Source: an uncultured bacterium
GTDB lineage: Bacteria; Vulcanimicrobiota; CADAWZ01
Length of the DNA stretch: 64,000 bases
Assembly: GCA_949288455.1 (NCBI GenBank)
Contig: CASEKF010000015.1
Span: 18,132-82,131 of the forward strand
Direction of reading: 5' to 3'
Shown: piece after piece, positions 9,298-58,647 of the stretch
Numbering within the stretch: position 1 is the first letter of the stretch
Layout of the letters: every line of letters starts with the position of its first letter
Made by a program: the position numbers and the translations under genes
Notes under the pieces: generated by a model
What the model was told of the DNA's origin: nothing
Database searches by the model: none
What the model saw: only the letters and a program-made list of their open reading frames with translations

Positions 9298-9336
9298 AAT
9301 AAAAATTCCCTAACTATTTTAATAATGCATTCATTG

Positions 9337-9400
9337 AAGATTCTAAATATTATGATCTTTTCCTGTTCGAACAGGAAAAGATCATAATATTTAGAATCTT
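9337..9400. repeat. perfect 64-bp palindrome (32-bp arms, no loop)
   Basis: aagattctaaatattatgatcttttcctgttcg is followed immediately by its exact reverse complement cgaacaggaaaagatcataatatttagaatctt. Verified base by base, centre between 9368 and 9369. Confidence 0.95.
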
Positions 9401-9408
9401 TAATAATT

Positions 9409-11124
9409 ATGTATAAATTTGCGGCAAGCGTAAACGCGAGATACTACGCGATACAAAAAGGCAACGAAATAACCTGCGGCTACGAAGGAGAAAATAAATG
9501 GACTAAGCCTTTTCCCTATTCTAAGCTGTCTTTGATATGTATTGCAAACAACGGAGTAATGATAGCGGCAGCCGACGGTCAAATTATGCAAATTTTTGCA
9601 GATCCCAGTATTTCCCCTACGCCATTAAAAGGACTAACAGCCCAAGAATTAGCCTCTAAAGACACCGTAATTACGGGACTAAAAATAAACTCAAGCGGAA
9701 CTCAACTGTGCTTAGGATTAAAACAAAAGATTTCTAATTTTACCGATAAGGTAAAATTTTTTTTCACCAAATCGGAAGCGAAAAAAAAACTTATAAAACA
9801 TAAGCTTCAATTTATCAGCCTAATAACCGACAATTTTAAAGATTACTATGAAAACACGCACTCTGAAATCGATTCGCATAAATATTTCTGGACAATTTCA
9901 AACGATTTTGACTGGCTAGCAATAGCCGAGCCTATCAAGAAATTAACGGGCAAATATACCAAAGTATCGCTTGTCAAAGTCAAGGAATTTACGGTTTACA
10001 AAGAGATATTGTTAAATAACGAAACCGCTCTCAGCAGACTGGACATAAACTCGGACGGGCTTATACTGGCGGATATAGAAGACGCTAGAGGCAAAGGAGC
10101 TCTTATCATAAGCCCTGAAGAAAGCAGCGTAAGAATTGAAAAAAAGCCCGACTGGGAAACCGTAGGTTTAGGAACCGATTTTTTAGCGTTTAAAAATCAA
10201 TCCAACGAAATTATTATAAAAACGTTTGACAATTATACGAAATGCTACGCGTCGTTCGCCGCTCTTGAAGAAATGAACGTTCCATGGTCGATACATTTTT
10301 TGGATAAAAACAACATCCACATTCTTACGGAAGAAAACGGCGAACTAAATTTAACCAGAACGACTTTGGATCATCTTGCAATAGAGGCGAAAAGATGGAC
10401 GTTCATCCAAGCTCGAAAGGCGGAAGTCAGAAATATCGAAAAAGAGAAGCAAGAAAGACATAATGAAAGACAAGAACTTTATAATAAAAAACGGAAAGAA
10501 TTAGCTAAAGGAATAGCTCTTATGAAATTCAACGCCGCCTTTAGTTCTCAGTCTGCAACGACAAACGAAGAGGCGGACTCAAACGAATCGAACGAACAAA
10601 GACGGGACGTTTTTCAAATTAAAAGAAACAAAAAAATTAATCTTTCCATATCTGAGAATAACGAGAATAACGAAGCCGTTCATTTATCCGAATCAGATTT
10701 AAAGACCGACGGACGAACTGAAACAACCGAAGAAGACCGGACGGAAATAAACGAATTACAGGAAGAAAGCGCCGCTACAAATGCAAATAATTCATACGCG
10801 TCTATTAGAGCGTTACAAATAGAAGCGGAAGAAGCGGCCGCTCCTACGGAAGAACAAGAAGCCGAATCTCCAACCGCAGAAAAAATACGGCAGGAAGAAT
10901 CGCTGCAATCTCTTCGTATGAAAGTTCGGTCGCGCGTCGCGTCAAATCTTACGCCCGAAAATATGGAAACGTTAAAGAAAGAAAGACAAAAGATACGGCA
11001 GCTACTGGATATTTTAGACGAAAGATTTATTCAAGGAGAAATTACCGAACAATCTTATCAAGAACTAAAAACAAAATATCTGAAGAAGCGAAAAATTCTA
11101 GAAAAATATTTAAACAATCAATAA
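9409..11124 (+). CDS. hypothetical protein: repeat-like N-domain, acidic coiled middle, SHOCT-like C-terminus
   Basis: 571-aa ORF. The C-terminal LDILDERFIQGEITEQSYQELKTKYLKKRKIL resembles the SHOCT short C-terminal motif. No Shine-Dalgarno sequence before ATG 9409, so the start is uncertain. Confidence 0.45.
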   Translation: MYKFAASVNARYYAIQKGNEITCGYEGENKWTKPFPYSKLSLICIANNGVMIAAADGQIMQIFADPSISPTPLKGLTAQELASKDTVITGLKINSSGTQLCLGLKQKISNFTDKVKFFFTKSEAKKKLIKHKLQFISLITDNFKDYYENTHSEIDSHKYFWTISNDFDWLAIAEPIKKLTGKYTKVSLVKVKEFTVYKEILLNNETALSRLDINSDGLILADIEDARGKGALIISPEESSVRIEKKPDWETVGLGTDFLAFKNQSNEIIIKTFDNYTKCYASFAALEEMNVPWSIHFLDKNNIHILTEENGELNLTRTTLDHLAIEAKRWTFIQARKAEVRNIEKEKQERHNERQELYNKKRKELAKGIALMKFNAAFSSQSATTNEEADSNESNEQRRDVFQIKRNKKINLSISENNENNEAVHLSESDLKTDGRTETTEEDRTEINELQEESAATNANNSYASIRALQIEAEEAAAPTEEQEAESPTAEKIRQEESLQSLRMKVRSRVASNLTPENMETLKKERQKIRQLLDILDERFIQGEITEQSYQELKTKYLKKRKILEKYLNNQ

Positions 11125-43981: not shown

Positions 43982-45661
43982 ATGAATTCCTTAGAAGAAT
44001 TAAAAAATCATTTTTTCGAAAAAGCTAAAGCAGAATACAGAATTTATAAACGGCATATAGAATCCGAACAAAACAAACAAGGCAAAAACGGCGATTCGAC
44101 AAACGGCTTTCCTATTTTCATAGCGATTCTCAGTTTGATAAATTTCGACGAGAAACGTATAAGCGAAATATTGAACAGCGCGGACGCTCAAACTTATAAA
44201 CCGGAACAAATAATCTCGTTTCGTTCGCAAGACGAATTTTCCGATTTTACGGAAGGAATTTCCAAAGAGAATAAAGCGAATCGTTATTTGATAATCGCCG
44301 ACGCTTCGGTAATTTTCGAGCCTTTCGCTTTTTTTGAAGCCGGGAAATATATATCCGAAAACAACAATCCCGATTTAATATATTCGGACGAAGAACTTTT
44401 CGACAAAAACGAATCCGTACTTTTACCTTATTTTAAACCGGAATTCTCTCCCGATACTCTTAGAAGCTTTAACTATATAGGAAATTTCTTTATAGTTTCG
44501 GAGGAACTTTTTAAAAATTCCTCTCTTGAAAAAAATGAATTCGACATATATGATTTAATTTTAAAAACGAGCGAAAAAGCAAAAACAATAAAGCGAATTC
44601 CAAAAATACTTTTCCGCGCAGACATAGAATTTAAAGAAATCGGGAATGCGCATTCCCGCGCCGTATTAACGCGTCATCTCTCCAGAAAAGGATTAGAATT
44701 TTCCGAGATAACTTCCAATAAAGGCATAAATAAAATAACTTACAAAATCAAAAACAATCCTCCGGTTTCCATAATAATTCCTAATAAAAACAACGCCGCT
44801 TTATTAAAAAGATGCGTCGAATCAATAACTTCGAAAACGTCTTATAACCGCTATGAAATAATCATCGTCGAAAACGGCAGTTCCGAAATCGAAACTTTCA
44901 ACTATTACGATGTTGCGTCAAAAAACGCAGTCATAAAAGTTATCAATTGGAATAAACCGTTTAATTATTCTTCGATCAATAATTTTGCCGTTTCGAACGC
45001 TCAAGGAGAGCATATCGTTCTATTAAACAACGATATAGAAATCATAACGCCTAATTGGATAGAAGAAATGTTGGCTTTCAGCCAAAGGGAAGACGTGGGA
45101 GCCGTAGGCTGCAAATTGTTATATCCCGACGGCACTATTCAGCACGCCGGACTGACTCTAGGCATTTTCAAAAACGCCGTTCACACTCATCCGCGTTTCG
45201 GCGGAGAAGCTCTCGGATATTTCGGTCGCGTTTCTGCGGTCTCAAACGTATCGGCGGTAACCGGCGCATGTCTGATGACTCCAAGAAGCGTATACGAAGA
45301 ACTGGGCGGTCTTGAAGAAAAATATACCCTCGGATACGGAGATATAGATTACTGTCTCAAAGCGCGGAAAAAATATCTTGTGATATTTACTCCGTTCGCT
45401 CAGGGCATTCATCATGAATCTCTTACCCGAGGAACCGATCAGGACGGAACAGGAAGAAAACGAGCGGAAAAAGAACTGGCCGTTTTTCATAAAAGATGGG
45501 GAGAAAATTTGAAAGATCCGTATTATAATCCGAACCTTTCTCCGACGAAAAGAGACTATTCTTTAAACGATTTCGACTCGCGCTATATATCGGCGCTGCA
45601 AAATTCCGCGCCGTATAAAATCGGCAAAAAATTCGTCAATTTAATTAAAGGCATTTTTTAA
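43982..45661 (+). CDS. family 2 glycosyltransferase (GT-A), with degenerate N-terminal GT-A-like half
   Basis: PPVSIIIPNKNNAALLKRCVESITSKTSYNRYEIIIVENGS and VLLNNDIEI (DxD-type) motifs. C-terminal SAPYKIGKKF amphipathic motif. Confidence 0.75.
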   Translation: MNSLEELKNHFFEKAKAEYRIYKRHIESEQNKQGKNGDSTNGFPIFIAILSLINFDEKRISEILNSADAQTYKPEQIISFRSQDEFSDFTEGISKENKANRYLIIADASVIFEPFAFFEAGKYISENNNPDLIYSDEELFDKNESVLLPYFKPEFSPDTLRSFNYIGNFFIVSEELFKNSSLEKNEFDIYDLILKTSEKAKTIKRIPKILFRADIEFKEIGNAHSRAVLTRHLSRKGLEFSEITSNKGINKITYKIKNNPPVSIIIPNKNNAALLKRCVESITSKTSYNRYEIIIVENGSSEIETFNYYDVASKNAVIKVINWNKPFNYSSINNFAVSNAQGEHIVLLNNDIEIITPNWIEEMLAFSQREDVGAVGCKLLYPDGTIQHAGLTLGIFKNAVHTHPRFGGEALGYFGRVSAVSNVSAVTGACLMTPRSVYEELGGLEEKYTLGYGDIDYCLKARKKYLVIFTPFAQGIHHESLTRGTDQDGTGRKRAEKELAVFHKRWGENLKDPYYNPNLSPTKRDYSLNDFDSRYISALQNSAPYKIGKKFVNLIKGIF

Positions 45662-45699
45662 GATCAAAAATTTGACAAAAAGAAAGACCGAGTAATATA

Positions 45700-47001
45700 A
45701 TGGACGAACAAATTAGAATATCGATCTTAATTTTCAAGAGATGGCTGCAAAAACTGCCATGTTACGTAGGCTTAAAGCTTCCCAAACATTATATGGAACA
45801 AAAAGCCATGTATGATTTTGAAATCGACCGTATATCCGCCGAAAAAAAACAGACGAAAAAAAGCGATTTTGAAAAATGCGATATTCCCCTTACCATTCGT
45901 TTAAACGAGCTTAAAGAGTTAATACAATCAACAAAGAAGACGGCGGCGATAATATATCCTTTTTTCGATATAAACTCTACTTTCAGATATAGGGTTTACA
46001 ACATATGTCAAATTTTAAAAAAAAGCGAAAAATACGGAGCGGTATATTTTTTCCCATACGAGCTTAAAGAAGCCGCTAAATTTATAAACGGCATAGACGC
46101 TGCGATAATATGCAGAACCGAATATTCCAAAGATATGGAAAAAGCCGTAAGATTTATTAAAAGACATAAGAAAACAATTCTTTTCGATATCGACGATCTT
46201 TTATTCAGCCCCGATTACTTTAAATATCTGTTGGATAAAATCGGAAATTCTCAAAATATTGAAAATAATCTCGAACCGGCGTTAGCTGCTACCGGCAAAT
46301 ATTACCTTATGGCAAAATTATGCGACGGCTTCATATCTACGAACGAATTTTTAGGAAAACTTCTCCTTAAAAAATTTGGCAAACCTTTCAAATCGATACC
46401 CAATTTTCTGAACGAAGAGCAGAAATCGGTCAAAGACGCGGAAAAATACGGTGATTTTACGTTGGGTTATTTCAGCGGAACAAATACCCACAACAAAGAT
46501 TTTCTGGAAGCCTGGAGCGGCATAAAACGTTTATTGACCGAGTATGAAGACATACGTCTAAAAATAACGGGCAGATTGACTCTTCCCGAAGACGCCAGAG
46601 TTTTTATGAAGTCTAAAAGAATAACTCAAAGTCCTCCAGTCGATTTTATAACGCTTCAAACGCTATACGGCAAAGTCCATGTAAACGTCGTTCCTTTAAC
46701 GCCCGGTCTTTTTAACGACTGCAAATCGGAACTTAAATTTTTTGAATCGGCGCTTATGGGCACCATTACTTGCGCGTCTCCGGCATATTCCTTCAGAAAA
46801 GCTATTAAACATGGCGAAAACGGTTTTTTGGCTAAACGAAGCGAATGGTTTGAAACTTTAAAATATATTTACGAAAATTATAAAAACTTACGTTCGATTG
46901 AAGAGAATGCGAAAAAATATGCGGTCGATAATTACTCCGGAAAAAAAATCATACAAAAAATAGAAGACTGTTTCGATTTTTTTCTTGGAAAGGACGGATA
47001 A
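45700..47001 (+). CDS. GT-B fold glycosyltransferase (GT1/GT4-like)
   Basis: C-terminal KFFESALMGTITCASPAYSFRKAIKHGENGFL resembles the GT-B nucleotide-sugar binding E-x7-E region. Confidence 0.55.
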   Translation: MDEQIRISILIFKRWLQKLPCYVGLKLPKHYMEQKAMYDFEIDRISAEKKQTKKSDFEKCDIPLTIRLNELKELIQSTKKTAAIIYPFFDINSTFRYRVYNICQILKKSEKYGAVYFFPYELKEAAKFINGIDAAIICRTEYSKDMEKAVRFIKRHKKTILFDIDDLLFSPDYFKYLLDKIGNSQNIENNLEPALAATGKYYLMAKLCDGFISTNEFLGKLLLKKFGKPFKSIPNFLNEEQKSVKDAEKYGDFTLGYFSGTNTHNKDFLEAWSGIKRLLTEYEDIRLKITGRLTLPEDARVFMKSKRITQSPPVDFITLQTLYGKVHVNVVPLTPGLFNDCKSELKFFESALMGTITCASPAYSFRKAIKHGENGFLAKRSEWFETLKYIYENYKNLRSIEENAKKYAVDNYSGKKIIQKIEDCFDFFLGKDG

Positions 47002-47004
47002 ACA

Positions 47005-48063
47005 TTGCGAAACGATAAGTTGGGAATAGCTTATAATATATTCGACGGAGAGGAAATTCTTCCGTTTTCAATAAGCGCTATAAGAAAAGAAGCGGATTAC
47101 ATAGCCGTCGTATATCAAAAAATAAGCAACGCGGGCGAAAAGGCCGCTCCTGACCTGGAAGATAAATTAAACGAATTAAAAAGGCTGAAACTCGCGGACG
47201 AACTATATCTATACGAGCCCGACTTAACGAAAGATCTCCATTTCAACGAAAAAAAGAAAAGGGATATCGGACTTCATTTAGTAAAAAAAGCCGGGTGCTC
47301 TTACTTTTTAAGCATGGACTGCGACGAATTCTACGAATCGGAAGAATTTGCGAGAGCAAAAAAATTTATAGCGGACAATGAAATAAAATCTTCCGCAGTA
47401 TCTATTTTAGAATATCTTAAAAAGCCCGAATACTTAATTTTAAACGGCTATACCTTCAATCACGGGTATGGAAACAGATACGCTTTTTACGTTCCTTTTA
47501 TAATGGACATAACAAACGAGGACTTAAACGGAAAAAAGACGCTTCATGGAGAGTCGTTCTTTCCGGTTCTTACGGATCCGACCAGAACGCTTAACGGCGC
47601 TCTTAAATTTTATCTTTTTCCAAAACATGAAATAGTTATGCGCCACATGTCAAGCGTAAGAGACAACTTAGAAATCAAATACAAAAACTCTTCTCTTAAT
47701 CAAAGACAAGACGAAGAGACTAAACTATTGATAGACGAGATAAAAAAGGATATTATCGACTTCAATTTTGAAAAAAATAAAATTTCAAATTCTCTTGCGA
47801 TATTCAGAGGATTGATAATAGAAAAGACAGACAATATCTTCAATATAAAATTACAAGGAGAGACAGAGGACACAAACTACGAGTCCGGCGAAGAAAACGC
47901 GTCCGATTTGAAATACCGGCTGCAGAGCTTAAAAGATAAATTGCTGACGGCGCAAACGGAATTAAAAACGATAAAAGAAAGCAAATCGTATAAATTGGCA
48001 AGCGCTTTAGCTTCCCTTGCGGCATATCCGAAGAATTTGTTACTCAAGCTTAAAAGGAGATAG
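47005..48063 (+). CDS. putative GT-A-like glycosyltransferase with C-terminal coiled coil
   Basis: TTG start. LSMDCDEFY is a DxD-like motif. C-terminal coiled segment and SKSYKLASALASL amphipathic motif. Assigned mostly from context. Confidence 0.4.
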   Translation: MRNDKLGIAYNIFDGEEILPFSISAIRKEADYIAVVYQKISNAGEKAAPDLEDKLNELKRLKLADELYLYEPDLTKDLHFNEKKKRDIGLHLVKKAGCSYFLSMDCDEFYESEEFARAKKFIADNEIKSSAVSILEYLKKPEYLILNGYTFNHGYGNRYAFYVPFIMDITNEDLNGKKTLHGESFFPVLTDPTRTLNGALKFYLFPKHEIVMRHMSSVRDNLEIKYKNSSLNQRQDEETKLLIDEIKKDIIDFNFEKNKISNSLAIFRGLIIEKTDNIFNIKLQGETEDTNYESGEENASDLKYRLQSLKDKLLTAQTELKTIKESKSYKLASALASLAAYPKNLLLKLKRR

Positions 48064-48066
48064 AGA

Positions 48067-50016
48067 ATGTTATTATCAGAGACTCGGGATACTTTAAAAG
48101 ACAAAGAATTTGGAGCCGGGTTAAATTCGGACGCACAACAATGCAAACTCATATACGGCTTGACTGCAAAAGAATTAAACGATCATCTGAAAAAGACTGA
48201 CTCAACCTTTTTAGATTTGTATAACGAATATAAAAGCGACGGCTGCTACTCGGCGGCAGCGGCGTTGTTCGAAAAGTTCGCAGACTTATTTCCCATAGAC
48301 GAGCGTATAAGCGAAGAAGCTAAGAATATTTTAAATTTAACAGTATTTTCATTTCAAAACGACGAAGACTTAAACGCCAATATTAATAAAATAAACAAAT
48401 TTCTCAGCGACAAAAACGAGAAAAAAACAATAGCGTTTTTTACTCACAGATGGATTACCGGAGGAATAGAAAAAGTTCTATCCACGCTGCTGTCTTTTAT
48501 GGATTCATATAATACGATTTTGATATCGCTTAAGCCGGTAAGCGAAGAAATACGCAGCGTGATAGAAATTCCTGAAAATACGATTCATATCATGTTGAGC
48601 GAATCGAAAATCGATAAAATATCCCATCGCCTCGCGTCTCTGTTGTCTATGCTTCATGCGGATATATTTATAGGGAACGTCCACTACGATAAATATATAC
48701 TTAAAATATACAAAATATTAAGTTATATGAAAATAAAAACTATCGCTTATATGCATTGTTCTTTTTTCATATATCATCGAATTTCGTATCTGAATCCGCT
48801 TATTCCAAAAATAAAAGAATCGCTGTCGTATGCCGACGCGGTAGTATGGCTGACAAACTTCAGTTTAAAATCGTATCAAATATCAAATAGAAACGGAATA
48901 AATATTCCGAATCCTTTAAACTTAACAATTTCCGACGTCTCTAAAACTCCTTCTAAAAATATCATCGCGGTAGGAAGATTCAAAGATCCGTTTAAACGGC
49001 TGGATCTGACGTTGAAAATTTTTAAAAAAGTACTGAACGATCATCAAGACGCCCAATTAACGATAGTAGGGCCTTACGATTTAAACGAGAAATGTCTGTA
49101 TTCGGAACAAACTTTCGAAGATATTATGAACGAACTGCAATTTCCGAAAGATAAGGTCGTTTTCGCAGGCGAACGAAAAGACTTAAAACCGTATTATGAA
49201 AAGGCGGCGGTTCTTCTGTTCACCTCGGAAATAGAAGGCTTTGGAATGGTTCTCGCCGAAGCCGGAGCATTCGGAACGCCTGCGGTTATATGCGATATTC
49301 CCGGTCTCGAAGATATTATAACCGACGGAGAAAACGGCTTTATATCGGATAAATATGATATAGACGGTATGGCGGAAAAAATAAATTATATTTTATCAAA
49401 TACGGACGTATTTATGGCAATGTCCGAAAAGGCTAAAAAACTTGTCAAAAGATTTGAAGCTCAATCCGTCGAGTCAAAATGGAAAGAGCTTATCGACGAA
49501 CTGATAAACGCAAAAACAAAAGAAGATATGGAACTTTTTTACCGCAAAAATGCGGAAAAAAATATTACTTCGCCCCAAGATATGATTCGCATTATAAAAG
49601 AATACGAAACGTCGGCTGCCGAAAATAATAAAGAGATAAAAGTCCTAACTCCCGCCATCGCTCGCTATCCGGTTCTTAATTTTATCTTTAATCAAATAGC
49701 TAACAACGCGGCTCTCCGTTTAACTTTCCTAAAGCCTGCGGAAACAATTTACGATTTACTTAAGGAAGAAAAAGAAATAAAAGCTATAGCCGAATCGAAA
49801 TATTTCGATAAAAAGTGGTATTTAAACAAATATCCCGAAGTAAAAAAGACAAAGACGGATCCTATAAAGCATTACGTAAAATTTGGCTGGAAAGAAGGTA
49901 AAGATCCGTCGCCGGATTTTAGCACTAACGATTATCTGGAGGAGCGTCCCGACGTAAAATATTCGGGAATATGTCCTCTTTATCACTGGCTAAAATTCGG
50001 ACAATACGGGAAGTAA
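48067..50016 (+). CDS. GT4 glycosyltransferase with conserved ~70-aa C-terminal tandem-motif domain
   Basis: RBS aaggag. GT4 motifs AVGRFKDPFKRLD and FTSEIEGFGMVLAEAGAFGTPAV...GENGF. C-terminus SKYFDKKWYLNKYPEVKKTKTDPIKHYVKFGWKEGKDPSPDFSTNDYLEERPDVKYSGICPLYHWLKFGQYGK. Confidence 0.75.
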   Translation: MLLSETRDTLKDKEFGAGLNSDAQQCKLIYGLTAKELNDHLKKTDSTFLDLYNEYKSDGCYSAAAALFEKFADLFPIDERISEEAKNILNLTVFSFQNDEDLNANINKINKFLSDKNEKKTIAFFTHRWITGGIEKVLSTLLSFMDSYNTILISLKPVSEEIRSVIEIPENTIHIMLSESKIDKISHRLASLLSMLHADIFIGNVHYDKYILKIYKILSYMKIKTIAYMHCSFFIYHRISYLNPLIPKIKESLSYADAVVWLTNFSLKSYQISNRNGINIPNPLNLTISDVSKTPSKNIIAVGRFKDPFKRLDLTLKIFKKVLNDHQDAQLTIVGPYDLNEKCLYSEQTFEDIMNELQFPKDKVVFAGERKDLKPYYEKAAVLLFTSEIEGFGMVLAEAGAFGTPAVICDIPGLEDIITDGENGFISDKYDIDGMAEKINYILSNTDVFMAMSEKAKKLVKRFEAQSVESKWKELIDELINAKTKEDMELFYRKNAEKNITSPQDMIRIIKEYETSAAENNKEIKVLTPAIARYPVLNFIFNQIANNAALRLTFLKPAETIYDLLKEEKEIKAIAESKYFDKKWYLNKYPEVKKTKTDPIKHYVKFGWKEGKDPSPDFSTNDYLEERPDVKYSGICPLYHWLKFGQYGK

Positions 50017-50076
50017 ACGCGCGGCAAACAAATTTTAAACCGACATCTCCCAAAAGCAAAAAGGAAGCAGATAAGC

Positions 50077-53000
50077 ATGAAAAATTCAAATCCTCCGGTT
50101 TCCATCGTAATTCCGGTTTACAACGGCTCGAATTACTTAAAATACGCGATAGACTCGGCTCTTAATCAAACGTATAAAAATATAGAGATAATAGTAATCA
50201 ACGACGGATCCGACGACGACGGAAAAACGGAAAAAACGGCTCTTTCATACGGAAATAAAATCAAATATTTCAAAAAAGAAAACGGAGGAGTCGCCACGGC
50301 TTTAAACTTAGCCATAGAAAAAGCTCAAGGAGAATATATATCCTGGTTAAGCCATGACGACGCGTATTACCCCGAAAAAACAGAAAAACAAATCGAGCGT
50401 CTTCAAACGTTCGGAAAAGACGCCGTAGTTATAAGCGATTACGAATATATAGATAAAAACGGAAACTTAATAAAAAAAGTAAAGATGAAAGACGGAATAG
50501 GCGACAATATAAAAGCCGCCTTAGCTTTAGGGAGTTGCCCGGAAGAAAGCGTCAACGGCTGCACGCTTCTTATTCCAAAAATCTTTTTTGAAAAATACGG
50601 ATACTTTGAGCCGGAATTAAAATATACCCAAGATTATTCGCTGTGGTTTAAAATAGCCTCTAGCGAACCTTTTATTCAGATGCCTTTATGCCTTGTAAAA
50701 TCGCGGCAACATGAGGAGCAGGATTCAAAAAAGGGAAACGAACGCCTGACGGAAGAAGTTAATAATCTTCACCGAAGGTTAATAGACGCTCTAACGGCAA
50801 AAGAGGCCGAAGACTTCTTCGTCAAGACCGGAAGCGCAATGACTCAGCCTCTGGATGCCTATCGAAACGCTAAATATTACGCGAGAACCGCGTCAATATT
50901 AAAAAAGCTTACCGAAATCAATTTTAAAAACGGCAGATTGTCCGCGGAGTTTACGGAGTATCTAAATAAAATTATTTTTAAATATCCTTCGGTCGATTTT
51001 GCAAACGCTTTTGAGACGGCTTTAAGAAAACTTGACGAAAACCATGATAAAATAAAAATTTTATTCTATGTTCACATATGGCAAAAAGGCGGAATAGAAA
51101 GAGTTTTATCGATCATACTTCCCCGTCTTGCGAAAAGATATACGATAATACTCGCATATACGGACAAAGCGGAGGCTCCGAACAAAGGTTTTTCTCTGCC
51201 TGAAAATATTATTAAAATTACGATTAACGATGATCACGACTCAAATATCGCGGAAAGACTGGATTATCTGCAAGCGGTTATTAAAGCCGACGTTTTCGTA
51301 AATACGACTCATATAAATAAACAAATTCTTCAATTATACGAATCTTTAAAACCTCAGAAAATAAAAGCGATAGCTTCAATGAACTGCAACTATTTTATAA
51401 ATTACGCTATCAACGGCTTAGAGTCAAATATTGCCGAACAAAATAAATATCTGCCTTACGCCGACGCCGTAACCTGGCTGACAAAATTTTATCTTTACCT
51501 ATACTCCGCTTCGCATGAAAACGGAATTTATATGCCGAACCCTCTGCCGTTTCAAATAAGCGGCCGAACAAAAAAACGCGGCAAAAATATCTTGGCGGTA
51601 GGACGATTTGACGATATCAATAAACGCCTCGACCTGACTTTAGAGGTATTTAAAAAAGTCCTTGACCGTCATAAAGACGCTAAATTGACTATAGTGGGAT
51701 CTTATGATAAGAACGCCGAGTTTCCGCAAAGGAACAACCAAACTCTGAACGTTATTCTAAAAAAGCTGGCGATACCTGAAGAAAATCTATGTTTTGCGGG
51801 GGAAAGAGAAAACGTAGACTCTTTTTATAAAAACGCCGATATATTCATAATGACTTCGGATACGGAAGGCTTGCCCAATGTCTTGCTTGAAGCGGGATGT
51901 TTCGCTCTCCCGTCGGTATTATTTGATATTCCCGGTCTCGAAGACGTTATAATCGAAGGCGAAAACGGTTTTATTATAGATAAATACGACGTAGAAGGTA
52001 TGGCGGACAAAATCAGCTTACTGTTTGAGGACGAAGAACTGTTTCAAAAAATGAGTTCCCAAACAGCAGCTTTAGCTTCCGAATTCGCGCCGGACAAAAT
52101 AATAAAAAAATGGACAGACTTAATAGAATCGCTTGTTCAAGGCGGAAACGCGTCTGACTCCGGCAAATCGGCGAAAATCCAATGCGAAATTACGCCTCCG
52201 ACTCAAAAATATCCTATTCAAACGGCGCGGCAGTTTAAACTGAACACCGAGCTTATACTCGAAAATAAATTAAAAACGCTTATCTCGCATAAAATTTTAA
52301 ACGTCCCCGGAATATCGCAAAACTTAGCCGAATTCAAGATCAGAAAAAAAGATAAGCCTATCGTTATGTTCCATATATTCGGCTGGCAGCGAGGAGGAAT
52401 GGAAAGAGCCCTGCAGACTCTGGCGAATTATCTGGCAAAAAAATACGAAGTAATAATAGCGGCTTGTCCTCCAGTAGCTAAACATGGATTTATACCGGAT
52501 AAAGACGTATGTTTTCTGCCGATACCGAAATACTTAAACATAATTTCAAATCTGGAAAAACTAATAAATTTCATAAAACCGGATGTTTTTATAGGAAACA
52601 ACAATAGCCTGCCGGAATTTTTCCCGATTTACGAAACTTTAAAAAAATTAAACGTAAAAACAATAGCTTACAACCATGAATCTTTTTTCTATATATATTC
52701 GCACGATTATCTGTACAAGTCGGCTCTGAAAAAACTGGATATGTTAAAATATGCGGATCTGGTCTTGTGGCTAACCCGTTTCAGCTTTAACGCATACTCT
52801 TTGTATAACGGCAACGGCTGCTATATTCCGAATCCGAATACTTTTTCGGCGGCGCAAAAAAACGAACACGCAACCAATACTAATTCAATCGTCGCGGTGG
52901 GCAGATTCAACGACTACGTTAAAAGAATAGATCGATTGCTAAAAATATTTAAAGAAATTTTAAAACTAAGGCCGGAAACCGTTTTGAACGTCGTAGGACA

Positions 53001-53991
53001 ATATGATTTGCGACTTAAATATGAAAGCGGCCGCACTATCGAAAGCTTAATCGAATCTTTAGAAATTCCGCCGGATAAATTAAAGTTTATAGGGGAAACA
53101 AACGACGTTGCGAAATATTATATGCAAAGCGACGTTTTTATAATGACTTCTCAAAGCGAAGGCATGCCGGCGGTAGTTACGGAAGCCATGACCTACGGAC
53201 TACCGGTAGTAATCATGGAAATACCGGGTCTGGAAGATCTCGTAGTAAACGGAGAAACCGGATATTCCGTCCCTCAGGACGATATCAAGGGAGCGGCGGA
53301 AAAAGTCCTCATGCTTCTGGACGACAAGGAGTTAAGACAGACGATCTCGGCGCGTCAGCAACAACATATACAACAATTCTCAATAGACAAAATAGGTCGA
53401 AAATGGGAAGAAATTATAAATGCGCTTATTGAAGGCAAACCCATACAACAAATAAACGATTCTAATCTTTATCAAAATGAAAAATTTCTGAAAAACATAG
53501 TAAAAGAATTTGAACAATACGCTGAAAAAATCGCCGCTATGCCGATAAACGAATTAGACAACCTGGAACAAGAGGGATATCTCGGAGTTCCGGAGCTCGT
53601 AAACGAAGCTTTGAGAACTGAGCTGGAGAATATAAAAAAATCTTGGCAAGCCGAACTGACGTATATAAAGAATTCTTGGTCATATAAAATAGGACGATGC
53701 ATAACAAAGCCTTTAAGTTTTATATACGAGTTTATAAAATTCAGGAACGAGGCCAAAACGGTAGAGCGTTCAAGTTTATTTAATAAAGCCTGGTATTTAA
53801 AAGAAAACCCCGACGTGGCGGAATCCGGAATGAATCCTGCTCTGCATTACGCTCAATTCGGCTGGAAAGAAGGAAGAGATCCCGGACCCGATTTCAGCTC
53901 AAACAGATATTTGGAAGAACGCCCGGACGTAAAATTTGCCGGGATGTGTCCCCTCTTTCACTATGAAAAATTCGGCAAACGCAATAAATAA
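50077..53991 (+). CDS. 1304-aa multidomain glycosyltransferase GT2-GT4-GT4 with the same C-terminal domain
   Basis: GT2: PPVSIVIPVYNGSNYLKYAIDSALNQTYKNIEIIVINDGSDD and WLSHDD. Two GT4 modules (MTSDTEGLPNVLLEAGCFALPSV; MTSQSEGMPAVVTEAMTYGLPVV). Coiled segment, NSWSYKIGRCITKPL helix, then the C-terminal domain SSLFNKAWYLKENPDV...HYEKFGKRNK. Confidence 0.8.
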   Translation: MKNSNPPVSIVIPVYNGSNYLKYAIDSALNQTYKNIEIIVINDGSDDDGKTEKTALSYGNKIKYFKKENGGVATALNLAIEKAQGEYISWLSHDDAYYPEKTEKQIERLQTFGKDAVVISDYEYIDKNGNLIKKVKMKDGIGDNIKAALALGSCPEESVNGCTLLIPKIFFEKYGYFEPELKYTQDYSLWFKIASSEPFIQMPLCLVKSRQHEEQDSKKGNERLTEEVNNLHRRLIDALTAKEAEDFFVKTGSAMTQPLDAYRNAKYYARTASILKKLTEINFKNGRLSAEFTEYLNKIIFKYPSVDFANAFETALRKLDENHDKIKILFYVHIWQKGGIERVLSIILPRLAKRYTIILAYTDKAEAPNKGFSLPENIIKITINDDHDSNIAERLDYLQAVIKADVFVNTTHINKQILQLYESLKPQKIKAIASMNCNYFINYAINGLESNIAEQNKYLPYADAVTWLTKFYLYLYSASHENGIYMPNPLPFQISGRTKKRGKNILAVGRFDDINKRLDLTLEVFKKVLDRHKDAKLTIVGSYDKNAEFPQRNNQTLNVILKKLAIPEENLCFAGERENVDSFYKNADIFIMTSDTEGLPNVLLEAGCFALPSVLFDIPGLEDVIIEGENGFIIDKYDVEGMADKISLLFEDEELFQKMSSQTAALASEFAPDKIIKKWTDLIESLVQGGNASDSGKSAKIQCEITPPTQKYPIQTARQFKLNTELILENKLKTLISHKILNVPGISQNLAEFKIRKKDKPIVMFHIFGWQRGGMERALQTLANYLAKKYEVIIAACPPVAKHGFIPDKDVCFLPIPKYLNIISNLEKLINFIKPDVFIGNNNSLPEFFPIYETLKKLNVKTIAYNHESFFYIYSHDYLYKSALKKLDMLKYADLVLWLTRFSFNAYSLYNGNGCYIPNPNTFSAAQKNEHATNTNSIVAVGRFNDYVKRIDRLLKIFKEILKLRPETVLNVVGQYDLRLKYESGRTIESLIESLEIPPDKLKFIGETNDVAKYYMQSDVFIMTSQSEGMPAVVTEAMTYGLPVVIMEIPGLEDLVVNGETGYSVPQDDIKGAAEKVLMLLDDKELRQTISARQQQHIQQFSIDKIGRKWEEIINALIEGKPIQQINDSNLYQNEKFLKNIVKEFEQYAEKIAAMPINELDNLEQEGYLGVPELVNEALRTELENIKKSWQAELTYIKNSWSYKIGRCITKPLSFIYEFIKFRNEAKTVERSSLFNKAWYLKENPDVAESGMNPALHYAQFGWKEGRDPGPDFSSNRYLEERPDVKFAGMCPLFHYEKFGKRNK

Positions 53992-54049
53992 CACGATATA
54001 ATTAAACAAACGCGCAAAAAACTAATCTTTCAAAAAAGGACGCGGAATT

Positions 54050-55084
54050 ATGAACGATATATTTAAGGATAAAACCCTAATGATCACAGGAGGAACGGGC
54101 TCTTTCGGGAACGCCGTTCTAAAACGCTTTTTACAAACCGATATAAAAGAAATACGCATTTTCTCAAGAGACGAAAAAAAACAGGACGATATGAGAAACC
54201 TCTATAAAAACGACAAAATAAAATTTTTTATAGGCGACGTCAGAGATTATCAAAGCGTAAAAAGCGCGATGTTCGGAGTAGATTACGTTTTTCAAGCCGC
54301 GGCTCTTAAACAAGTGCCTTCATGCGAATTTTTTCCAATGGAAGCCGTCCGAACAAATATTATGGGGACGGAAAACGTACTCAACGCCGCTATTGAAAAC
54401 AATATAAAAAAAGTGATATGTTTATCTACCGATAAAGCGGTCTATCCCATAAACGCGATGGGAATGTCAAAAGCTCTAATGGAAAAAGTCGCTATATCAA
54501 AATCGCGAAACGTTTCCGGCACGACTATAGCCGTAACGCGGTACGGAAACGTAATGGCTTCCAGAGGCTCGGTTATACCTTTATTTACGAAACAAATCAA
54601 AAGCAATTCTCCAATAACCGTAACGGATCCGCATATGACAAGATTTATGATGTCGTTGGACGACGCCATAGATCTAGTTCTATTCGCCTATAAGAACGCG
54701 AAAGGAGGAGAAATTTTCGTTCAAAAAGCTCCCGCTTCGACAATAAACGATCTGGCTCTGGCTATGAAGGAAATTTTCAGTTCGCATGTTCCGATAAAAT
54801 GCATAGGAACAAGACATGGCGAAAAATTATATGAAACTCTGCTTACGAGGGAAGAAAAAGTAAAAGCTAAGGATTTAGGAAATTACTTTATGGTTCCGCC
54901 CGATTCCAGGGACTTAAACTACGGGAAATATTTTGTAAACGGGGAAACGGTCATAACTCAGGCGGACGACTACAATTCTCACAACACAAGACGTTTATCG
55001 CTAAGCGAAACGGCGGAGCTTCTGAAAAAACTCGACTATATACGCCAAGAACTATCAGGCGAACCGCACGACGAGGGGTATTAA
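54050..55084 (+). CDS. UDP-GlcNAc 4,6-dehydratase/5-epimerase of the CapE/FnlA/WbjB (or WbvB) type
   Basis: TLMITGGTGSFGNAVLKRFL Rossmann motif. The active-site segment PINAMGMSKALMEK has Met-x3-Lys in place of the SDR Tyr-x3-Lys, as described for CapE-type enzymes. 344 aa. Confidence 0.8.
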   Translation: MNDIFKDKTLMITGGTGSFGNAVLKRFLQTDIKEIRIFSRDEKKQDDMRNLYKNDKIKFFIGDVRDYQSVKSAMFGVDYVFQAAALKQVPSCEFFPMEAVRTNIMGTENVLNAAIENNIKKVICLSTDKAVYPINAMGMSKALMEKVAISKSRNVSGTTIAVTRYGNVMASRGSVIPLFTKQIKSNSPITVTDPHMTRFMMSLDDAIDLVLFAYKNAKGGEIFVQKAPASTINDLALAMKEIFSSHVPIKCIGTRHGEKLYETLLTREEKVKAKDLGNYFMVPPDSRDLNYGKYFVNGETVITQADDYNSHNTRRLSLSETAELLKKLDYIRQELSGEPHDEGY

Positions 55085-55088
55085 TAAA

Positions 55089-56207
55089 ATGAAAGTAACG
55101 ACTATGGTAGGAACCAGACCCGAAATAATCAAACTCAGCTGCGTCATAGAAGCTCTGGATAAATATACGGAACACACTCTGGTTCACACGGGACAAAATT
55201 ACGACTATGAATTAAACGGCATTTTTTTTGAAGAAATGGGGATAAGAAAACCGGACGCATTCCTTGAAGCCGCCGGGACAAACGCCGCGGAAACAATCGG
55301 AAACGTCATAATTAAATCGGACGAATTTTTGCGAAAGGAAAAACCGGACGCGTTTCTCATATACGGAGATACAAATTCTTGTCTATCCGTAATATCGGCA
55401 AAAAGGCTGCATATCCCCGTATTTCATATGGAAGCCGGCAACAGATGTTTCGATCAACGCGTTCCGGAAGAAATCAACAGGAAAATAGTAGATCATTTAA
55501 GCGATATCAACATGACGATAACCGAGCATGCCAGACAATATCTCATACGGGAAGGAATTTCCCCCGAAACCGTGATAAAAGTCGGTTCCGGTATGAAAGA
55601 AGTCTTGATAAAACAAAAAGCCAACATAGAAAAAAGCGACGTTTTAAAGAAATTGTCTCTAACTCCCGGAGATTACTTTGTCGCCAGCGCTCACAGGGAG
55701 GAAAATACCGACTATCAAGACAACTTCCAAAATCTTTTGGAATCCCTTGAGGCTCTCGCCGCTACGTATAATAAAAGAATAATTTTTTCCACTCATCCCA
55801 GAACGAGAAAACTTCTGGACAAACTTAATATAAAACTAAACCCTCTTATAGAATTTCTTAAACCGTTAAGCTTCGCGGATTATATCAAGCTGCAGCGGAA
55901 TTCCCGATGCGTCGTATCGGACAGCGGCACGATCACCGAAGAAGCGTCCGTTTTAAAATTTCCGGCCGTAATGATAAGAAACGCTCATGAGAGGCCTGAA
56001 GGAATGGACGAAGGAACGCTGATAATGTGCGGTTTAAAAAAGGAAAGCGTACTAAAGGCGGTAGAGACGGCAGCCTCTCTTCATGCAGTCGCCGCGCCGG
56101 CAACGGTTAAAGATTACGATACCGACTGCGTCTCTTCCAAAGTAGTTAAAATAATAATGAGTTATACGGAATATATCGAAAGAACAGTATGGAAAAAAAT
56201 GAGGTAA
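55089..56207 (+). CDS. non-hydrolysing UDP-N-acetylhexosamine 2-epimerase (WecB/CapG/FnlC family)
   Basis: MVGTRPEIIKLS, YGDTNS and the SDSGTITEEA region. 372 aa. Confidence 0.85.
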   Translation: MKVTTMVGTRPEIIKLSCVIEALDKYTEHTLVHTGQNYDYELNGIFFEEMGIRKPDAFLEAAGTNAAETIGNVIIKSDEFLRKEKPDAFLIYGDTNSCLSVISAKRLHIPVFHMEAGNRCFDQRVPEEINRKIVDHLSDINMTITEHARQYLIREGISPETVIKVGSGMKEVLIKQKANIEKSDVLKKLSLTPGDYFVASAHREENTDYQDNFQNLLESLEALAATYNKRIIFSTHPRTRKLLDKLNIKLNPLIEFLKPLSFADYIKLQRNSRCVVSDSGTITEEASVLKFPAVMIRNAHERPEGMDEGTLIMCGLKKESVLKAVETAASLHAVAAPATVKDYDTDCVSSKVVKIIMSYTEYIERTVWKKMR

Positions 56208-56211
56208 AAAG

Positions 56212-57063
56212 ATGAAAATAGCGGTTTTAGGAGCCACCGGAATGGCCGGACACGTCATCTCGATTTTTTTTAAAGAAAAAGCTGCGGAAGTTTACGAAAC
56301 GTCAAGAAGCGTTCGAGAAGCTCCCGGATCTAAACGGATAGACGCGACCGATTCCGAATCGCTTATAAATTGGCTTAAAGAAATAAATCCCGACGTTATT
56401 GTTAACGCTATCGGGCTATTACAAAAAGCTTGTTCGGAACGACCGGATCTTGCGATTAAAATAAATTCTTATCTTCCTCAAAAATTAGCTTTTGAATTTA
56501 AAAAAGCAAAAGCCAAAATAATTCACCTGAGCACCGACTGCGTTTTTTCGGGCAAAAACGCGCCTTATAAAGAAGATTCTTTTAAAGACGGAGACACTTT
56601 GTACGACAGAACCAAAGCTCTGGGAGAAATAATCAACGATAAAGATTTGACTTTAAGAATGTCAATTATAGGTCCGGATATAACTCCTGAAGGAACCGGG
56701 CTTTTCAACTGGTTCTGTAAACAAACGGGAACAATTAACGGATACGCTAAATGTTTTTGGAACGGAATCACTACGATAGAGCTGGCTAAAGCTATCGAAG
56801 CGGCTATAAAACAAAACGTAACCGGCCTGTATAATCTAGTTCCTAAATTTAATATATCAAAATATGAATTGCTTCTGCTTTTTAAAACTGTTTTTAACAG
56901 GCAAGACGTGGAAATTATTCCGTCTGAAATAGTTAACGTAAATAAAACTTTAATAAATACAAGAACAGATTTTAATTACTCTATTCCCTCTTACAAAACC
57001 ATGATAAAAGAAATGGCGGAATGGATAAATTACCATAAAGATTTATATTATTTCGCAAAATAA
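56212..57063 (+). CDS. RmlD-like NAD(P)-dependent sugar-nucleotide 4-reductase
   Basis: MKIAVLGATGMAGHV Rossmann motif and HLSTDCVFSGKNAPYKEDS...LYDRTKALGE (Y-x3-K). 283 aa. Confidence 0.7.
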   Translation: MKIAVLGATGMAGHVISIFFKEKAAEVYETSRSVREAPGSKRIDATDSESLINWLKEINPDVIVNAIGLLQKACSERPDLAIKINSYLPQKLAFEFKKAKAKIIHLSTDCVFSGKNAPYKEDSFKDGDTLYDRTKALGEIINDKDLTLRMSIIGPDITPEGTGLFNWFCKQTGTINGYAKCFWNGITTIELAKAIEAAIKQNVTGLYNLVPKFNISKYELLLLFKTVFNRQDVEIIPSEIVNVNKTLINTRTDFNYSIPSYKTMIKEMAEWINYHKDLYYFAK

Positions 57064-57073
57064 AGGATCAAAA

Positions 57074-57508
57074 ATGGAAAAACCTTACTTAATAGAAGGC
57101 GGAATCTTCAAAGACGAAAGAGGCGTAATTGCTCATGTAAACGCCTTTGACTTCAGTTCCGTAAAACGTTTTTACACAATAGAAAATACTTCCCGTAAAA
57201 CTATAAGGGCGTGGCAGGGACACATTGAAGAGCGAAAATTTTTTTACGCGATAAAAGGCAAATTCTATATAGCATACGTTAAAATAGACAATTGGGAAAA
57301 CCCTTCGAAAGATCTGAAAGCAGAATGCAAAATCCTTTCCGATCTCAAAAGCGAAATTCTGTATATACCGGCAGGCTACGCCAACGGCATAAAAGCTTTG
57401 GAAGAAAATTCAAAACTACTGGTTTTTTCAACTCTAAGCATTGAAGAAGCCGTTAAAGAAAAAATAAGATACGATAAGAATTTATGGGTAAATTGGGAAA
57501 CGCTATGA
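57074..57508 (+). CDS. small cupin, WxcM/FdtA-like or CapF-C-terminal-like sugar-nucleotide isomerase/epimerase
   Basis: 144 aa. KRFYTIENTSRKTIRAWQGHIEERKFFYAIKGKFYI resembles the cupin core of FdtA/WxcM-type proteins. Sits inside the sugar-nucleotide operon. Confidence 0.5.
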   Translation: MEKPYLIEGGIFKDERGVIAHVNAFDFSSVKRFYTIENTSRKTIRAWQGHIEERKFFYAIKGKFYIAYVKIDNWENPSKDLKAECKILSDLKSEILYIPAGYANGIKALEENSKLLVFSTLSIEEAVKEKIRYDKNLWVNWETL

Positions 57509-58647
57509 TATATAAATATACTTCCGACTCTTTTTTCAGGGAAATAAAACTGTTTTTCCACGATGCGGAAACCGTATTGGATATAGGCTGCGGAGTGCGG
57601 CCGTGTTTGGATATTATTCCCAAAACTCATATTTGCCTGGATCCCAGCAAAGAATATATGGATATTCTGAAATCTTGTCATCCTAAAAATACTCAATACA
57701 TATTTTTAAATACGGACGCGTTAACAGGATTAAAAACCTTTGCCGATCTAAGCGTAGATACAGTTTTGGCTCTGGATCTAATAGAACATCTTAAGAAAGA
57801 AGACGGATTTGAGCTTTTAAAAGAAGCGGATAGAGTAGCTAAAAAACAAATTATATTTTTTACGCCTTTAGGCTTCGTTTCAAACGAACAAACAGACTCG
57901 GATACCGACGCATGGGGACTTCATGGAAAAGAACTGCAAAAACACAGAAGCGGTTGGCTCCCCGAGGATTTCGGCGACGCCTATGATTTTCATATCTGCG
58001 AAACGCTGTACAAGAAAGAAACTCATACGGCTAAGGTAGATAAAGATTTCGGAGCGTTTTACGCAATTAAAAATAAATTCTATAAAGAAACCTCTCCCCT
58101 TCCCGAAACTCCGTTATTCGTTAAAGAAGCGGCTCAGAAACAAGAGCCGAATTTTTATGACAAAATTCTGCAAAGCAAGGAAGCGCAAATTAAAAATCAA
58201 AACGAACTACTTAAAAATCAAAATGAACAGATTAAAAATCAAAGCGAACAGATTAAAATTCTAAACGAACAGATCAAAAATCAAAACGAACAATTAGAGA
58301 AAATAAATTTATCATTAGCAATAATACGAAAACATCCGTACTTCAAACTACGACGGCTAGCTAAAAAATATATTATCAGGCCTATAAAAAGTCTAATAAA
58401 CGACGAAGTAAAAACGGTAAGCAATTCCGCGTTTTTCAATAAAAAATGGTATCTTGAAGAATATGACGACGTAAGAAAAGCTAGTATGGATCCCGCGAAA
58501 CATTACGTTAAATTCGGGTGGAAAGAAGGAAGAAATCCCGGGCCCGACTTTAACGGCGAAGACTACCTCGATAAAAGACCCGACGTGCGGGAAGAAGAAA
58601 TGTGCCCTCTGTATCACTATGAAAAATTCGGAAAATACGAAATATAA
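57505..58647 (+). CDS. class I SAM-dependent methyltransferase - coiled coil - conserved C-terminal tandem-motif domain
   Basis: ATGA stop/start overlap with the cupin gene. SAM motif I VLDIGCGVRP. Heptad repeats QIKNQNE. C-terminus SAFFNKKWYLEEYDDVRKASMDPAKHYVKFGWKEGRNPGPDFNGEDYLDKRPDVREEEMCPLYHYEKFGKYEI. Confidence 0.7.
   Translation: MIYKYTSDSFFREIKLFFHDAETVLDIGCGVRPCLDIIPKTHICLDPSKEYMDILKSCHPKNTQYIFLNTDALTGLKTFADLSVDTVLALDLIEHLKKEDGFELLKEADRVAKKQIIFFTPLGFVSNEQTDSDTDAWGLHGKELQKHRSGWLPEDFGDAYDFHICETLYKKETHTAKVDKDFGAFYAIKNKFYKETSPLPETPLFVKEAAQKQEPNFYDKILQSKEAQIKNQNELLKNQNEQIKNQSEQIKILNEQIKNQNEQLEKINLSLAIIRKHPYFKLRRLAKKYIIRPIKSLINDEVKTVSNSAFFNKKWYLEEYDDVRKASMDPAKHYVKFGWKEGRNPGPDFNGEDYLDKRPDVREEEMCPLYHYEKFGKYEI
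58186..58311 (+). repeat. six imperfect tandem 21-bp repeats encoding heptads (QIKNQNE)n
   Basis: Units start at 58186, 58207, 58228, 58249, 58270 and 58291: caaattaaaaatcaaaacgaa / ctacttaaaaatcaaaatgaa / cagattaaaaatcaaagcgaa / cagattaaaattctaaacgaa / cagatcaaaaatcaaaacgaa / caattagagaaaataaattta. Confidence 0.85.

Follow-up and report, generated by a model that had tools for sequence, protein, structure and literature searches.

What does a methyltransferase do when its gene closes a glycan operon and its chain is extended by a predicted coiled coil encoded in tandem DNA repeats? The question is raised by one gene in a 64,000-nucleotide stretch of contig CASEKF010000015.1 (positions 18,132 to 82,131; assembly GCA_949288455.1) from an uncultured bacterium of the Vulcanimicrobiota. 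The source genome spans 2.13 Mb with 39.5% G+C and is 98.9% complete. We refer to the whole stretch as the window and count positions from its first letter. Judging from sequence, predicted structure and gene context, we consider it roughly 60% probable that the encoded protein of 380 amino acids (aa) is the chain-terminating O-methyltransferase of a surface glycan exported by an ATP-binding cassette (ABC) transporter, working as proposed below. The gene and its parts are the following.

57505 to 58647, plus strand: methyltransferase open reading frame (ORF), 380 aa, stop codon included; final gene of the plus-strand glycan operon at 43982-58647
57505 to 58089, plus strand: class I S-adenosylmethionine (SAM)-dependent methyltransferase domain, residues 1-195 (Pfam, AlphaFold2 (AF2), Foldseek)
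57574 to 57603, plus strand: SAM motif I, VLDIGCGVRP, residues 24-33
58141 to 58320, plus strand: predicted coiled-coil stalk, approximately residues 213-272; its roughly 58 residues would span about 8.6 nm if helical
58186 to 58311, plus strand: array of 21-bp tandem repeats found with Tandem Repeats Finder (TRF), one heptad per unit
58330 to 58404, plus strand: basic amphipathic helix, residues 276-300 (KHPYFKLRRLAKKYIIRPIKSLIN), a predicted membrane-surface anchor
58420 to 58644, plus strand: C-terminal module of 70-75 aa made of two repeats of about 35 aa, with the pattern F-x3-4-YL-x3-PDV...P-x2-HY-x3-G-x2-EGR-x-P

The N-terminal domain is a class I SAM methyltransferase, with a Rossmann-like fold and a glycine-rich motif I. 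The Pfam model Methyltransf_11 matches residues 25-115 (E=4.4e-8, 34.1 bits against a cut-off of 21.2). The AF2 model of the whole protein, computed from a 47-sequence alignment, has a mean predicted local distance difference test score (pLDDT) of 88.9 and forms the methyltransferase fold from residues 1-190, mostly with a pLDDT above 90. The top 50 Foldseek matches of the methyltransferase are generic enzymes of class I, the best being 3dli, and enzymes acting on lipids and small molecules are among the nearest solved folds. In the sequence ATGA, the start codon of the gene shares bases with the TGA that ends the upstream cupin gene (57074-57508). This arrangement favours the start at 57505 over an in-frame ATG at 57484 (387 aa) and indicates that translation of the methyltransferase is coupled to that of the cupin gene.

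Downstream of this domain the protein is modelled as one unbroken helix (residues 215-307), with a pLDDT of 96-98 across the heptads and 57-70 over residues 280-300; the stalk also has a sub-threshold match to the coiled-coil family DUF16 of Pfam. The heptads read QIKNQNE LLKNQNE QIKNQSE QIKILNE QIKNQNE QLEKINL. TRF reports a period of 21 bp at 58189-58296, with 5.2 copies, 82% matches and a score of 153. The array is in frame and comprises five good units (58186-58290) followed by a degenerate sixth (58291-58311). The original prediction of six heptads encoded by 21-bp tandem repeats is thus confirmed by TRF and by translation, with the qualification that the sixth unit is degenerate. The overall order it described, from methyltransferase to heptads, basic amphipathic helix and common C-terminal module, likewise agrees with the ORF translation, Pfam, TRF and AF2.

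The segment that follows the stalk is strongly amphipathic, with a hydrophobic moment of 0.46-0.62 and a net charge of up to +7 in 18-residue windows, and by eye, HP..R helices resembling it are present in distant homologues. In the full-length model, the chain ends in a compact helical domain at residues 313-379 with a pLDDT above 90. Modelled alone, the C-terminal module again gives a small helical domain (pLDDT 94.1). No Pfam or NCBIfam model matches any of it, and a structural search of the Protein Data Bank (PDB) with the module model returned no fold matches at E values of at most 0.001.

The number of heptads, compared in assembled contigs and protein clusters, differs between close strains. 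The 380-aa sequence or single-residue variants of it occur on 23 contigs from independent assemblies, which rules out faulty assembly as the source of the repeat array. P0104, a member of the 90%-identity cluster to which the window protein belongs, has five heptads against six in the window. The contig that encodes it, from strain L007, aligns with the window over 16.5 kb at 99.1% identity and differs by an exact 21-bp deletion within the array; of the 25 gapped positions in the whole alignment, 21 are due to this deletion. Further pairs that differ by whole units were found by comparison within 90%-identity clusters.

P0008 compared with P0257: plus one QELNTVT unit
P0031 compared with P0258: plus one unit of 14 aa
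P0022 compared with P0262: minus one heptad
Nostoc P0122 compared with P0260: plus one LVDTQNQ unit
GT2 protein P0058 compared with P0266 (metagenomic cluster, module-bearing): minus three heptads

Together with the window species, whole-unit changes are therefore found in four other methyltransferase lineages and one module-bearing GT2 protein, which amounts to six independent cases. The expectation that 21-bp units are gained or lost in frame, and that repeat number is not invariant between strains, is met by the exact one-unit deletion in L007 and by the unit insertions and deletions in the four other methyltransferase lineages. When L007:10682-10786 is aligned with 58186-58311 of the window, the same N/S-to-T codon change is seen in two different repeat units, which could reflect gene conversion between units.

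To place the protein among its relatives, we use the methyltransferase-domain subfamily, which has 190 representatives at E values of at most 1e-30 and 570 at E values of at most 1e-10 among 1.84 billion proteins. Its members come from many bacterial phyla and from some archaea, and the motifs DIGCG, IEH, TPxG, W-G and HxSGWxPxDF are invariant in their alignment. There are 147 relatives in species genomes, and the loci of 80 of these (L014-L093) were fetched and analysed. Wzm and Wzt were called in these loci with hidden Markov models built from the Wzm and Wzt sequences of this analysis. On this basis, Wzt is encoded within 10 kb of the methyltransferase in 46 of the 80 loci, and in 26 the pair wzm-wzt lies directly upstream of the methyltransferase on the same strand. 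The order wzm-wzt-methyltransferase is also that of E. coli O8/O9a.

The Wzt proteins of the family loci are mostly 414-498 aa long, and eight of ten that were sampled pass the Pfam threshold for Wzt_C. This carbohydrate-binding domain is a hallmark of export coupled to terminal modification (PMC11231755). The suggestion that the enzyme follows the logic of a glycan terminator is therefore supported by the linkage of its family to wzm-wzt (26/80) and to Wzt_C (8/10). In individually inspected loci, for example L008 (Paenibacillus), L011, L012 and L013, the methyltransferase stands beside Wzm/Wzt and multidomain glycosyltransferases, and in L012 a Wzt with the Wzt_C domain is encoded directly upstream of it. 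The Paenibacillus locus has nearly the same kit as the window: an FnlA-like protein, a 2-epimerase, a 283-aa RmlD-like reductase, Wzm, Wzt, a GT4 protein, a 1156-aa multidomain glycosyltransferase and a methyltransferase with a coiled coil. FnlA-like and 2-epimerase genes, which in the window lie at 54050-56207, occur within 10 kb of the methyltransferase in 43 of the 80 species loci, an association about as strong as that with wzt. This gene context suggests that glycans with 2-acetamido-2,6-dideoxy-L-hexose are capped, or at any rate modified, by the family, and it hints at a specificity for glycans of this kind.

Most members of the family carry a tail behind the catalytic domain. Among 302 proteins, 210 have tails of 25-198 aa (median 76), 59 run into glycosyltransferase or other domains, and 33 have almost no tail; a basic segment ends 138 of the 210 tails of 25-200 aa. 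Many tails are tandem repeats of unrelated sequence, such as QELNTVT, SLEAEKI (whose 21-bp units are 100% identical), LQQTQAQ, ELANTQL, LVDTQNQ, ANAELQN and the 14-aa unit VLKQVRESLEQENT. Strong internal repeats were detected in 21 of 237 proteins, ten of the 21 being GT2 proteins whose match to the query lies in the coiled coil and the module. Their periods are all 7, 14 or 21 residues, with no other period within 4-13. At the DNA level, 21-bp repeats encode methyltransferase tails in seven of the 80 loci, and the heptad sequence differs in each.

Within the window, the methyltransferase gene is preceded by genes for glycan assembly and for a sugar precursor, which were assigned with Pfam and NCBIfam.

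43982 to 48063, plus strand: three glycan-assembly genes, encoding a 559-aa GT2 protein, a 433-aa GT4-like protein and a 352-aa protein
48067 to 50016, plus strand: 649-aa GT4 glycosyltransferase with a C-terminal module at 49793-50013, a candidate polymerase component
50077 to 53991, plus strand: 1304-aa GT2-GT4-GT4 glycosyltransferase, a candidate polymerase
54050 to 57508, plus strand: precursor genes for an FnlA-type 4,6-dehydratase/5-epimerase, a protein of the UDP-N-acetylglucosamine (UDP-GlcNAc) 2-epimerase family, an RmlD-like reductase and a cupin

The operon thus runs in the order GT2, GT4-like, 352-aa protein, GT4, GT2-GT4-GT4, FnlA-type, 2-epimerase, RmlD-like, cupin and methyltransferase. 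The precursor genes jointly indicate a putative pathway to UDP-2-acetamido-2,6-dideoxy-L-hexose, and the glycan of this locus probably contains a 6-deoxy-L-N-acetylhexosamine (6-deoxy-L-HexNAc). The NCBIfam model FnlA scores 543 bits on the dehydratase, which is under its equivalog cut-off of 730. The 352-aa protein (47005-48063) matches neither Pfam nor NCBIfam, although it too ends in a coiled coil and a basic helix; it could be a glycosyltransferase of no recognised class or a further member of the assembly complex.

The 2.1-Mb genome encodes the C-terminal module in three places, each within the glycan locus (58420-58644, 49793-50013 and 53764-53988). The C-terminus of the 1304-aa glycosyltransferase consists of a short coiled coil, an SWSYKIGR helix and then the module (53764-53988). 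Among the module-bearing proteins of the locus, the longest coiled coil is that of the methyltransferase, with about 58 residues against about 25 in the 1304-aa polymerase. A long stalk on the methyltransferase and a short one on the polymerase is the geometry needed by a molecular ruler.

How such a glycan might leave the cell was addressed by searching the whole genome for known export and assembly proteins. A sole Wzm/Wzt pair is present, on another contig (C16, positions 8284-10290 of the fetched stretch, minus strand), and its Wzt is a protein of 392 aa with an extended C-terminus. The best solved relatives of this Wzt are the 404-aa ABC-transporter chain 8dku/7k2t, as opposed to family entries of about 240 aa that comprise only the ATPase. 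The genome also encodes LpxC and a second phosphotransferase of the MraY/WecA family (PF00953). No matches for Wzz (PF02706), Wzy_C/WaaL (PF04932), Wzx (PF01943) or Bac_transf were detected in the genome, and divergent flippases may escape the models. With Wzm/Wzt present and Wzz, Wzy_C and PF01943 undetected, the only recognised polysaccharide exporter is of the ABC type. This repertoire speaks against a Wzy-dependent route with a Wzz regulator, in agreement with the ABC-transporter-dependent system that had been envisaged. Immediately around the Wzm/Wzt genes on C16 are those for a LysM protein, a pyridoxal phosphate enzyme and acetate kinase, away from any glycosyltransferase cluster; two GT4 genes lie on the same contig about 24 kb from them. 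A glycosyltransferase cluster on contig C68, the only other one inspected, was considered as another client of Wzm/Wzt and set aside because it looks like a lipopolysaccharide core locus, with a GT9-type heptosyltransferase, an RfaE-like cytidylyltransferase and an LpxB-like fusion recognised by eye.

A coiled coil is described as a 'characteristic marker' of terminators in ABC-transporter-dependent glycan pathways (PMC11231755). The closest precedent is WbdD of E. coli O9a and K. pneumoniae O3, with the methyltransferase-only WbdD of O8/O5, in which an N-terminal capping domain is again followed by a coiled coil. In PMC11231755 and PMC5082667, the length of this coiled coil sets the length of the O antigen, which upholds the precedent invoked by the original prediction. 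WbdD has a C-terminal amphipathic region that associates with the membrane and recruits the polymerase, a place taken here by the predicted membrane-surface anchor. WbdD works in a Wzm/Wzt pathway, and the synteny of wzm, wzt and terminator recurs across the methyltransferase family. The catalytic module is N-terminal, at the end predicted to be distal to the membrane, as Methyltransf_11 and AF2 place it, and this matches the class of coiled-coil terminators.

We nevertheless rejected the idea that the protein is a WbdD homologue. A phmmer search of the PDB at E values of at most 1 returned no WbdD chain, yielding only 3dli and designed or unrelated helical proteins. There is also no WbdD chain among the top 50 Foldseek matches of the methyltransferase, and the protein has no kinase domain. 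Given the same architecture without homology, we class it as a functional analogue. Unlike WbdD, whose stalk measures about 20 nm, it has a stalk of about 58 residues (approximately 9 nm) that derives from tandem 21-bp repeats, a 70-aa module behind the helix that is common to the polymerases, and unlinked transporter genes.

Other characterized proteins show parts of the same plan. The methyltransferase of the E. coli O101/O162 (Onovel32) rfb locus, likened here by layout alone, combines a single methyltransferase domain at its N-terminus with a coiled coil at its C-terminus. It is needed for O-methyl capping in an ABC-transporter pathway, and its authors proposed it as a WbdD-like ruler (PMC13168486). 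That paper describes no tandem-repeat encoding and no copy-number polymorphism of the coiled coil, and the natural variants in it are gene disruptions. ORF6 of K. pneumoniae O7, WbbB of O12 and ORF7 of O4 likewise place a terminating module at the distal end of a coiled coil, with polymerase modules variably spread over one or several complex-forming proteins (PMC11231755). Their capping chemistry differs (methyl-phosphate or Kdo), and in O7 and O12 one polypeptide holds both the terminator and the glycosyltransferase modules, whereas here they are separate proteins with a common C-terminal module.

Short tandem DNA repeats whose copy number differs between close strains also recall the contingency-type repeats of bacterial surface-structure genes. 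In contrast to those, in-frame units of 21 bp should step the length of the protein by one heptad rather than switch the gene on or off, and the data gave no sign of a high switching rate. What is new relative to known coiled-coil terminators is a repeat-encoded and naturally polymorphic stalk, a module common to terminator and polymerases, and unlinked transporter genes. A literature search, which was largely without subscription papers and might have missed an earlier description, found no ruler that is encoded by tandem repeats or is naturally polymorphic.

These observations suggest the following mechanism. The C-terminal module and the basic amphipathic helix would place the methyltransferase at the cytoplasmic face of the inner membrane, beside two polymerising glycosyltransferases that bear the same module and might dock through it. 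A parallel coiled coil of about 58 residues (about 8.6 nm) would keep the N-terminal catalytic domain away from the membrane site, such that an undecaprenyl-linked chain is capped only when it is long enough to reach that domain. The cap would presumably end extension and make an epitope for the C-terminal domain of Wzt, after which Wzm/Wzt would export the chain. Domain architecture, repeats, copy-number polymorphism, synteny across the family and the pathway repertoire of the genome are observed; we infer terminal methylation, the oligomeric state of the stalk, the docking role of the module and any dependence of chain length on heptad number. Because six heptads of the stalk each correspond to one 21-bp repeat, gain or loss of a unit by slippage or unequal recombination lengthens or shortens the stalk by exactly one heptad, and each such step would correspond to about 1 nm, or roughly two sugar residues. 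That heptad copy number acts as a functional dial of glycan chain length that is used in nature is a suggestion we make tentatively and hold to be doubtful. We are similarly cautious about the broader idea that rulers are repeatedly built from tandem heptad repeats with drifting copy number, as a dial of about 1 nm per unit, with terminator and polymerases joined through a common C-terminal module; this might be the case, with the odds against it.

Serum resistance, phage adsorption and immune recognition all depend in part on how long O antigens and similar glycans are, and the idea of a coiled-coil ruler rests on engineered WbdD variants. If the dial exists, natural alleles that differ by one heptad would show that bacteria use the ruler as an evolvable trait, and they would form a ready-made allelic series for quantitative tests of it. 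The association with FnlA-type precursor genes and with Wzt_C transporters offers an annotation rule for several hundred 'class I methyltransferases' that lack annotation, and the common 70-aa module may be a new kind of docking domain in the protein complexes that assemble glycans.

Several observations weigh against a terminator that measures its product, and they bear on different parts of the proposal. As regards export, wzm and wzt lie outside the glycan locus, on C16 among unrelated genes, and with these genes on another contig we infer their assignment to this glycan. The Wzt of the genome scores 29.9 bits by direct hmmscan (E=6.5e-7) against a Wzt_C cut-off of 30.4, and a Wzt_C search of the whole genome gave zero matches, which we attribute to the first-look filter of that search in light of the near-threshold hmmscan score. 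A WaaL-type ligase, which would join the glycan to its final acceptor, was not detected in the genome. As regards the stalk, each heptad has one clearly hydrophobic core position (I/L) and N or Q at the other, which makes the stability and the oligomeric state of the coiled coil uncertain. Tails of this type are also found on other enzymes. The methyltransferase domain was not found in five searched genomes of the same family, and in four of these five, GT2-type proteins carry a heptad tail, an SWSYRIGR-type helix and the same module. Perfect heptad tandems on the GT2 proteins of these relatives include EQNRQIQ x5 and a KNEQIK type (G002:C277 and G004:C104), followed by the SWSYRIGR helix and the module, and similar tails are seen among metagenomic GT2 proteins. 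This distribution identifies a lineage-wide cassette for assembly enzymes, with a coiled coil that terminators share with other proteins. It appears that the methyltransferase domain was attached to this cassette, and the heptad tail may serve assembly in general instead of measuring chains.

These tails support an enzyme that does not terminate chains at all, and that instead O-methylates internal residues, or one 6-deoxy-L-HexNAc wherever it occurs, with a tail that only tethers it to the membrane assembly complex and measures nothing. The co-occurrence of FnlA and epimerase genes (43/80) equally fits the modification of one sugar that is not necessarily terminal, as does the translational coupling of the methyltransferase to the sugar-precursor genes, and 33 of the 302 family members manage with almost no tail. 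Family genes nevertheless directly follow a wzt with Wzt_C, a domain that reads terminal modification in the systems studied (PMC11231755), and the characterized proteins of such loci in which a methyltransferase precedes a coiled coil are all terminators (PMC11231755, PMC13168486). The longest coiled coil of the module-bearing proteins in the locus is also that of the methyltransferase. We judge the non-terminating enzyme unlikely. A substrate other than a glycan, such as a lipid, a protein or a small molecule, with the gene present in the locus by chance, is very improbable. It would fit the generic class I similarity and the nearest solved folds described above, but against it stand the operon coupling, a module shared with two glycosyltransferases, and the glycan-locus context of all five homologue loci with sufficient flanks and across the 80 species loci.

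An array without influence on chain length is compatible with chain termination. Heptad duplication would then represent the growth of a coiled coil in a repeat-prone genome, and glycan length would be set by enzyme stoichiometry, as the ratio of WbdA to WbdD also shapes chain length in E. coli O9a (PMC11231755). The genome has 101 strong in-frame tandem arrays (TRF score of at least 80), nine of them of period 21. Heptad variation is also infrequent, with six units in 23 of the 24 population observations and five in the other. Against such neutrality stand the periods of the 21 repeat-bearing proteins, which are commensurate with the heptad alone, the independent origin of unrelated repeats at the same position in many lineages, and the altered chain length that follows engineered insertions and deletions in the coiled coil of WbdD (PMC5082667). 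A neutral array is possible, if on the whole somewhat improbable. The chain-terminating O-methyltransferase remains the reading that we prefer for the 380-aa protein.

Two further observations concern the repeats and the module beyond this locus. Nearly all of the 101 tandem arrays in the genome have periods divisible by three, and several have 10-23 copies; examples elsewhere in the genome are C42:40237-40557, C42:85912-86335 and C32:18729-19077. In-frame repeat expansion thus looks like a general habit of the source organism. In distant taxa, related copies of the C-terminal module are found at one or the other end of GT2, GT4 and GT92-like proteins, in some cases with three or four repeats.

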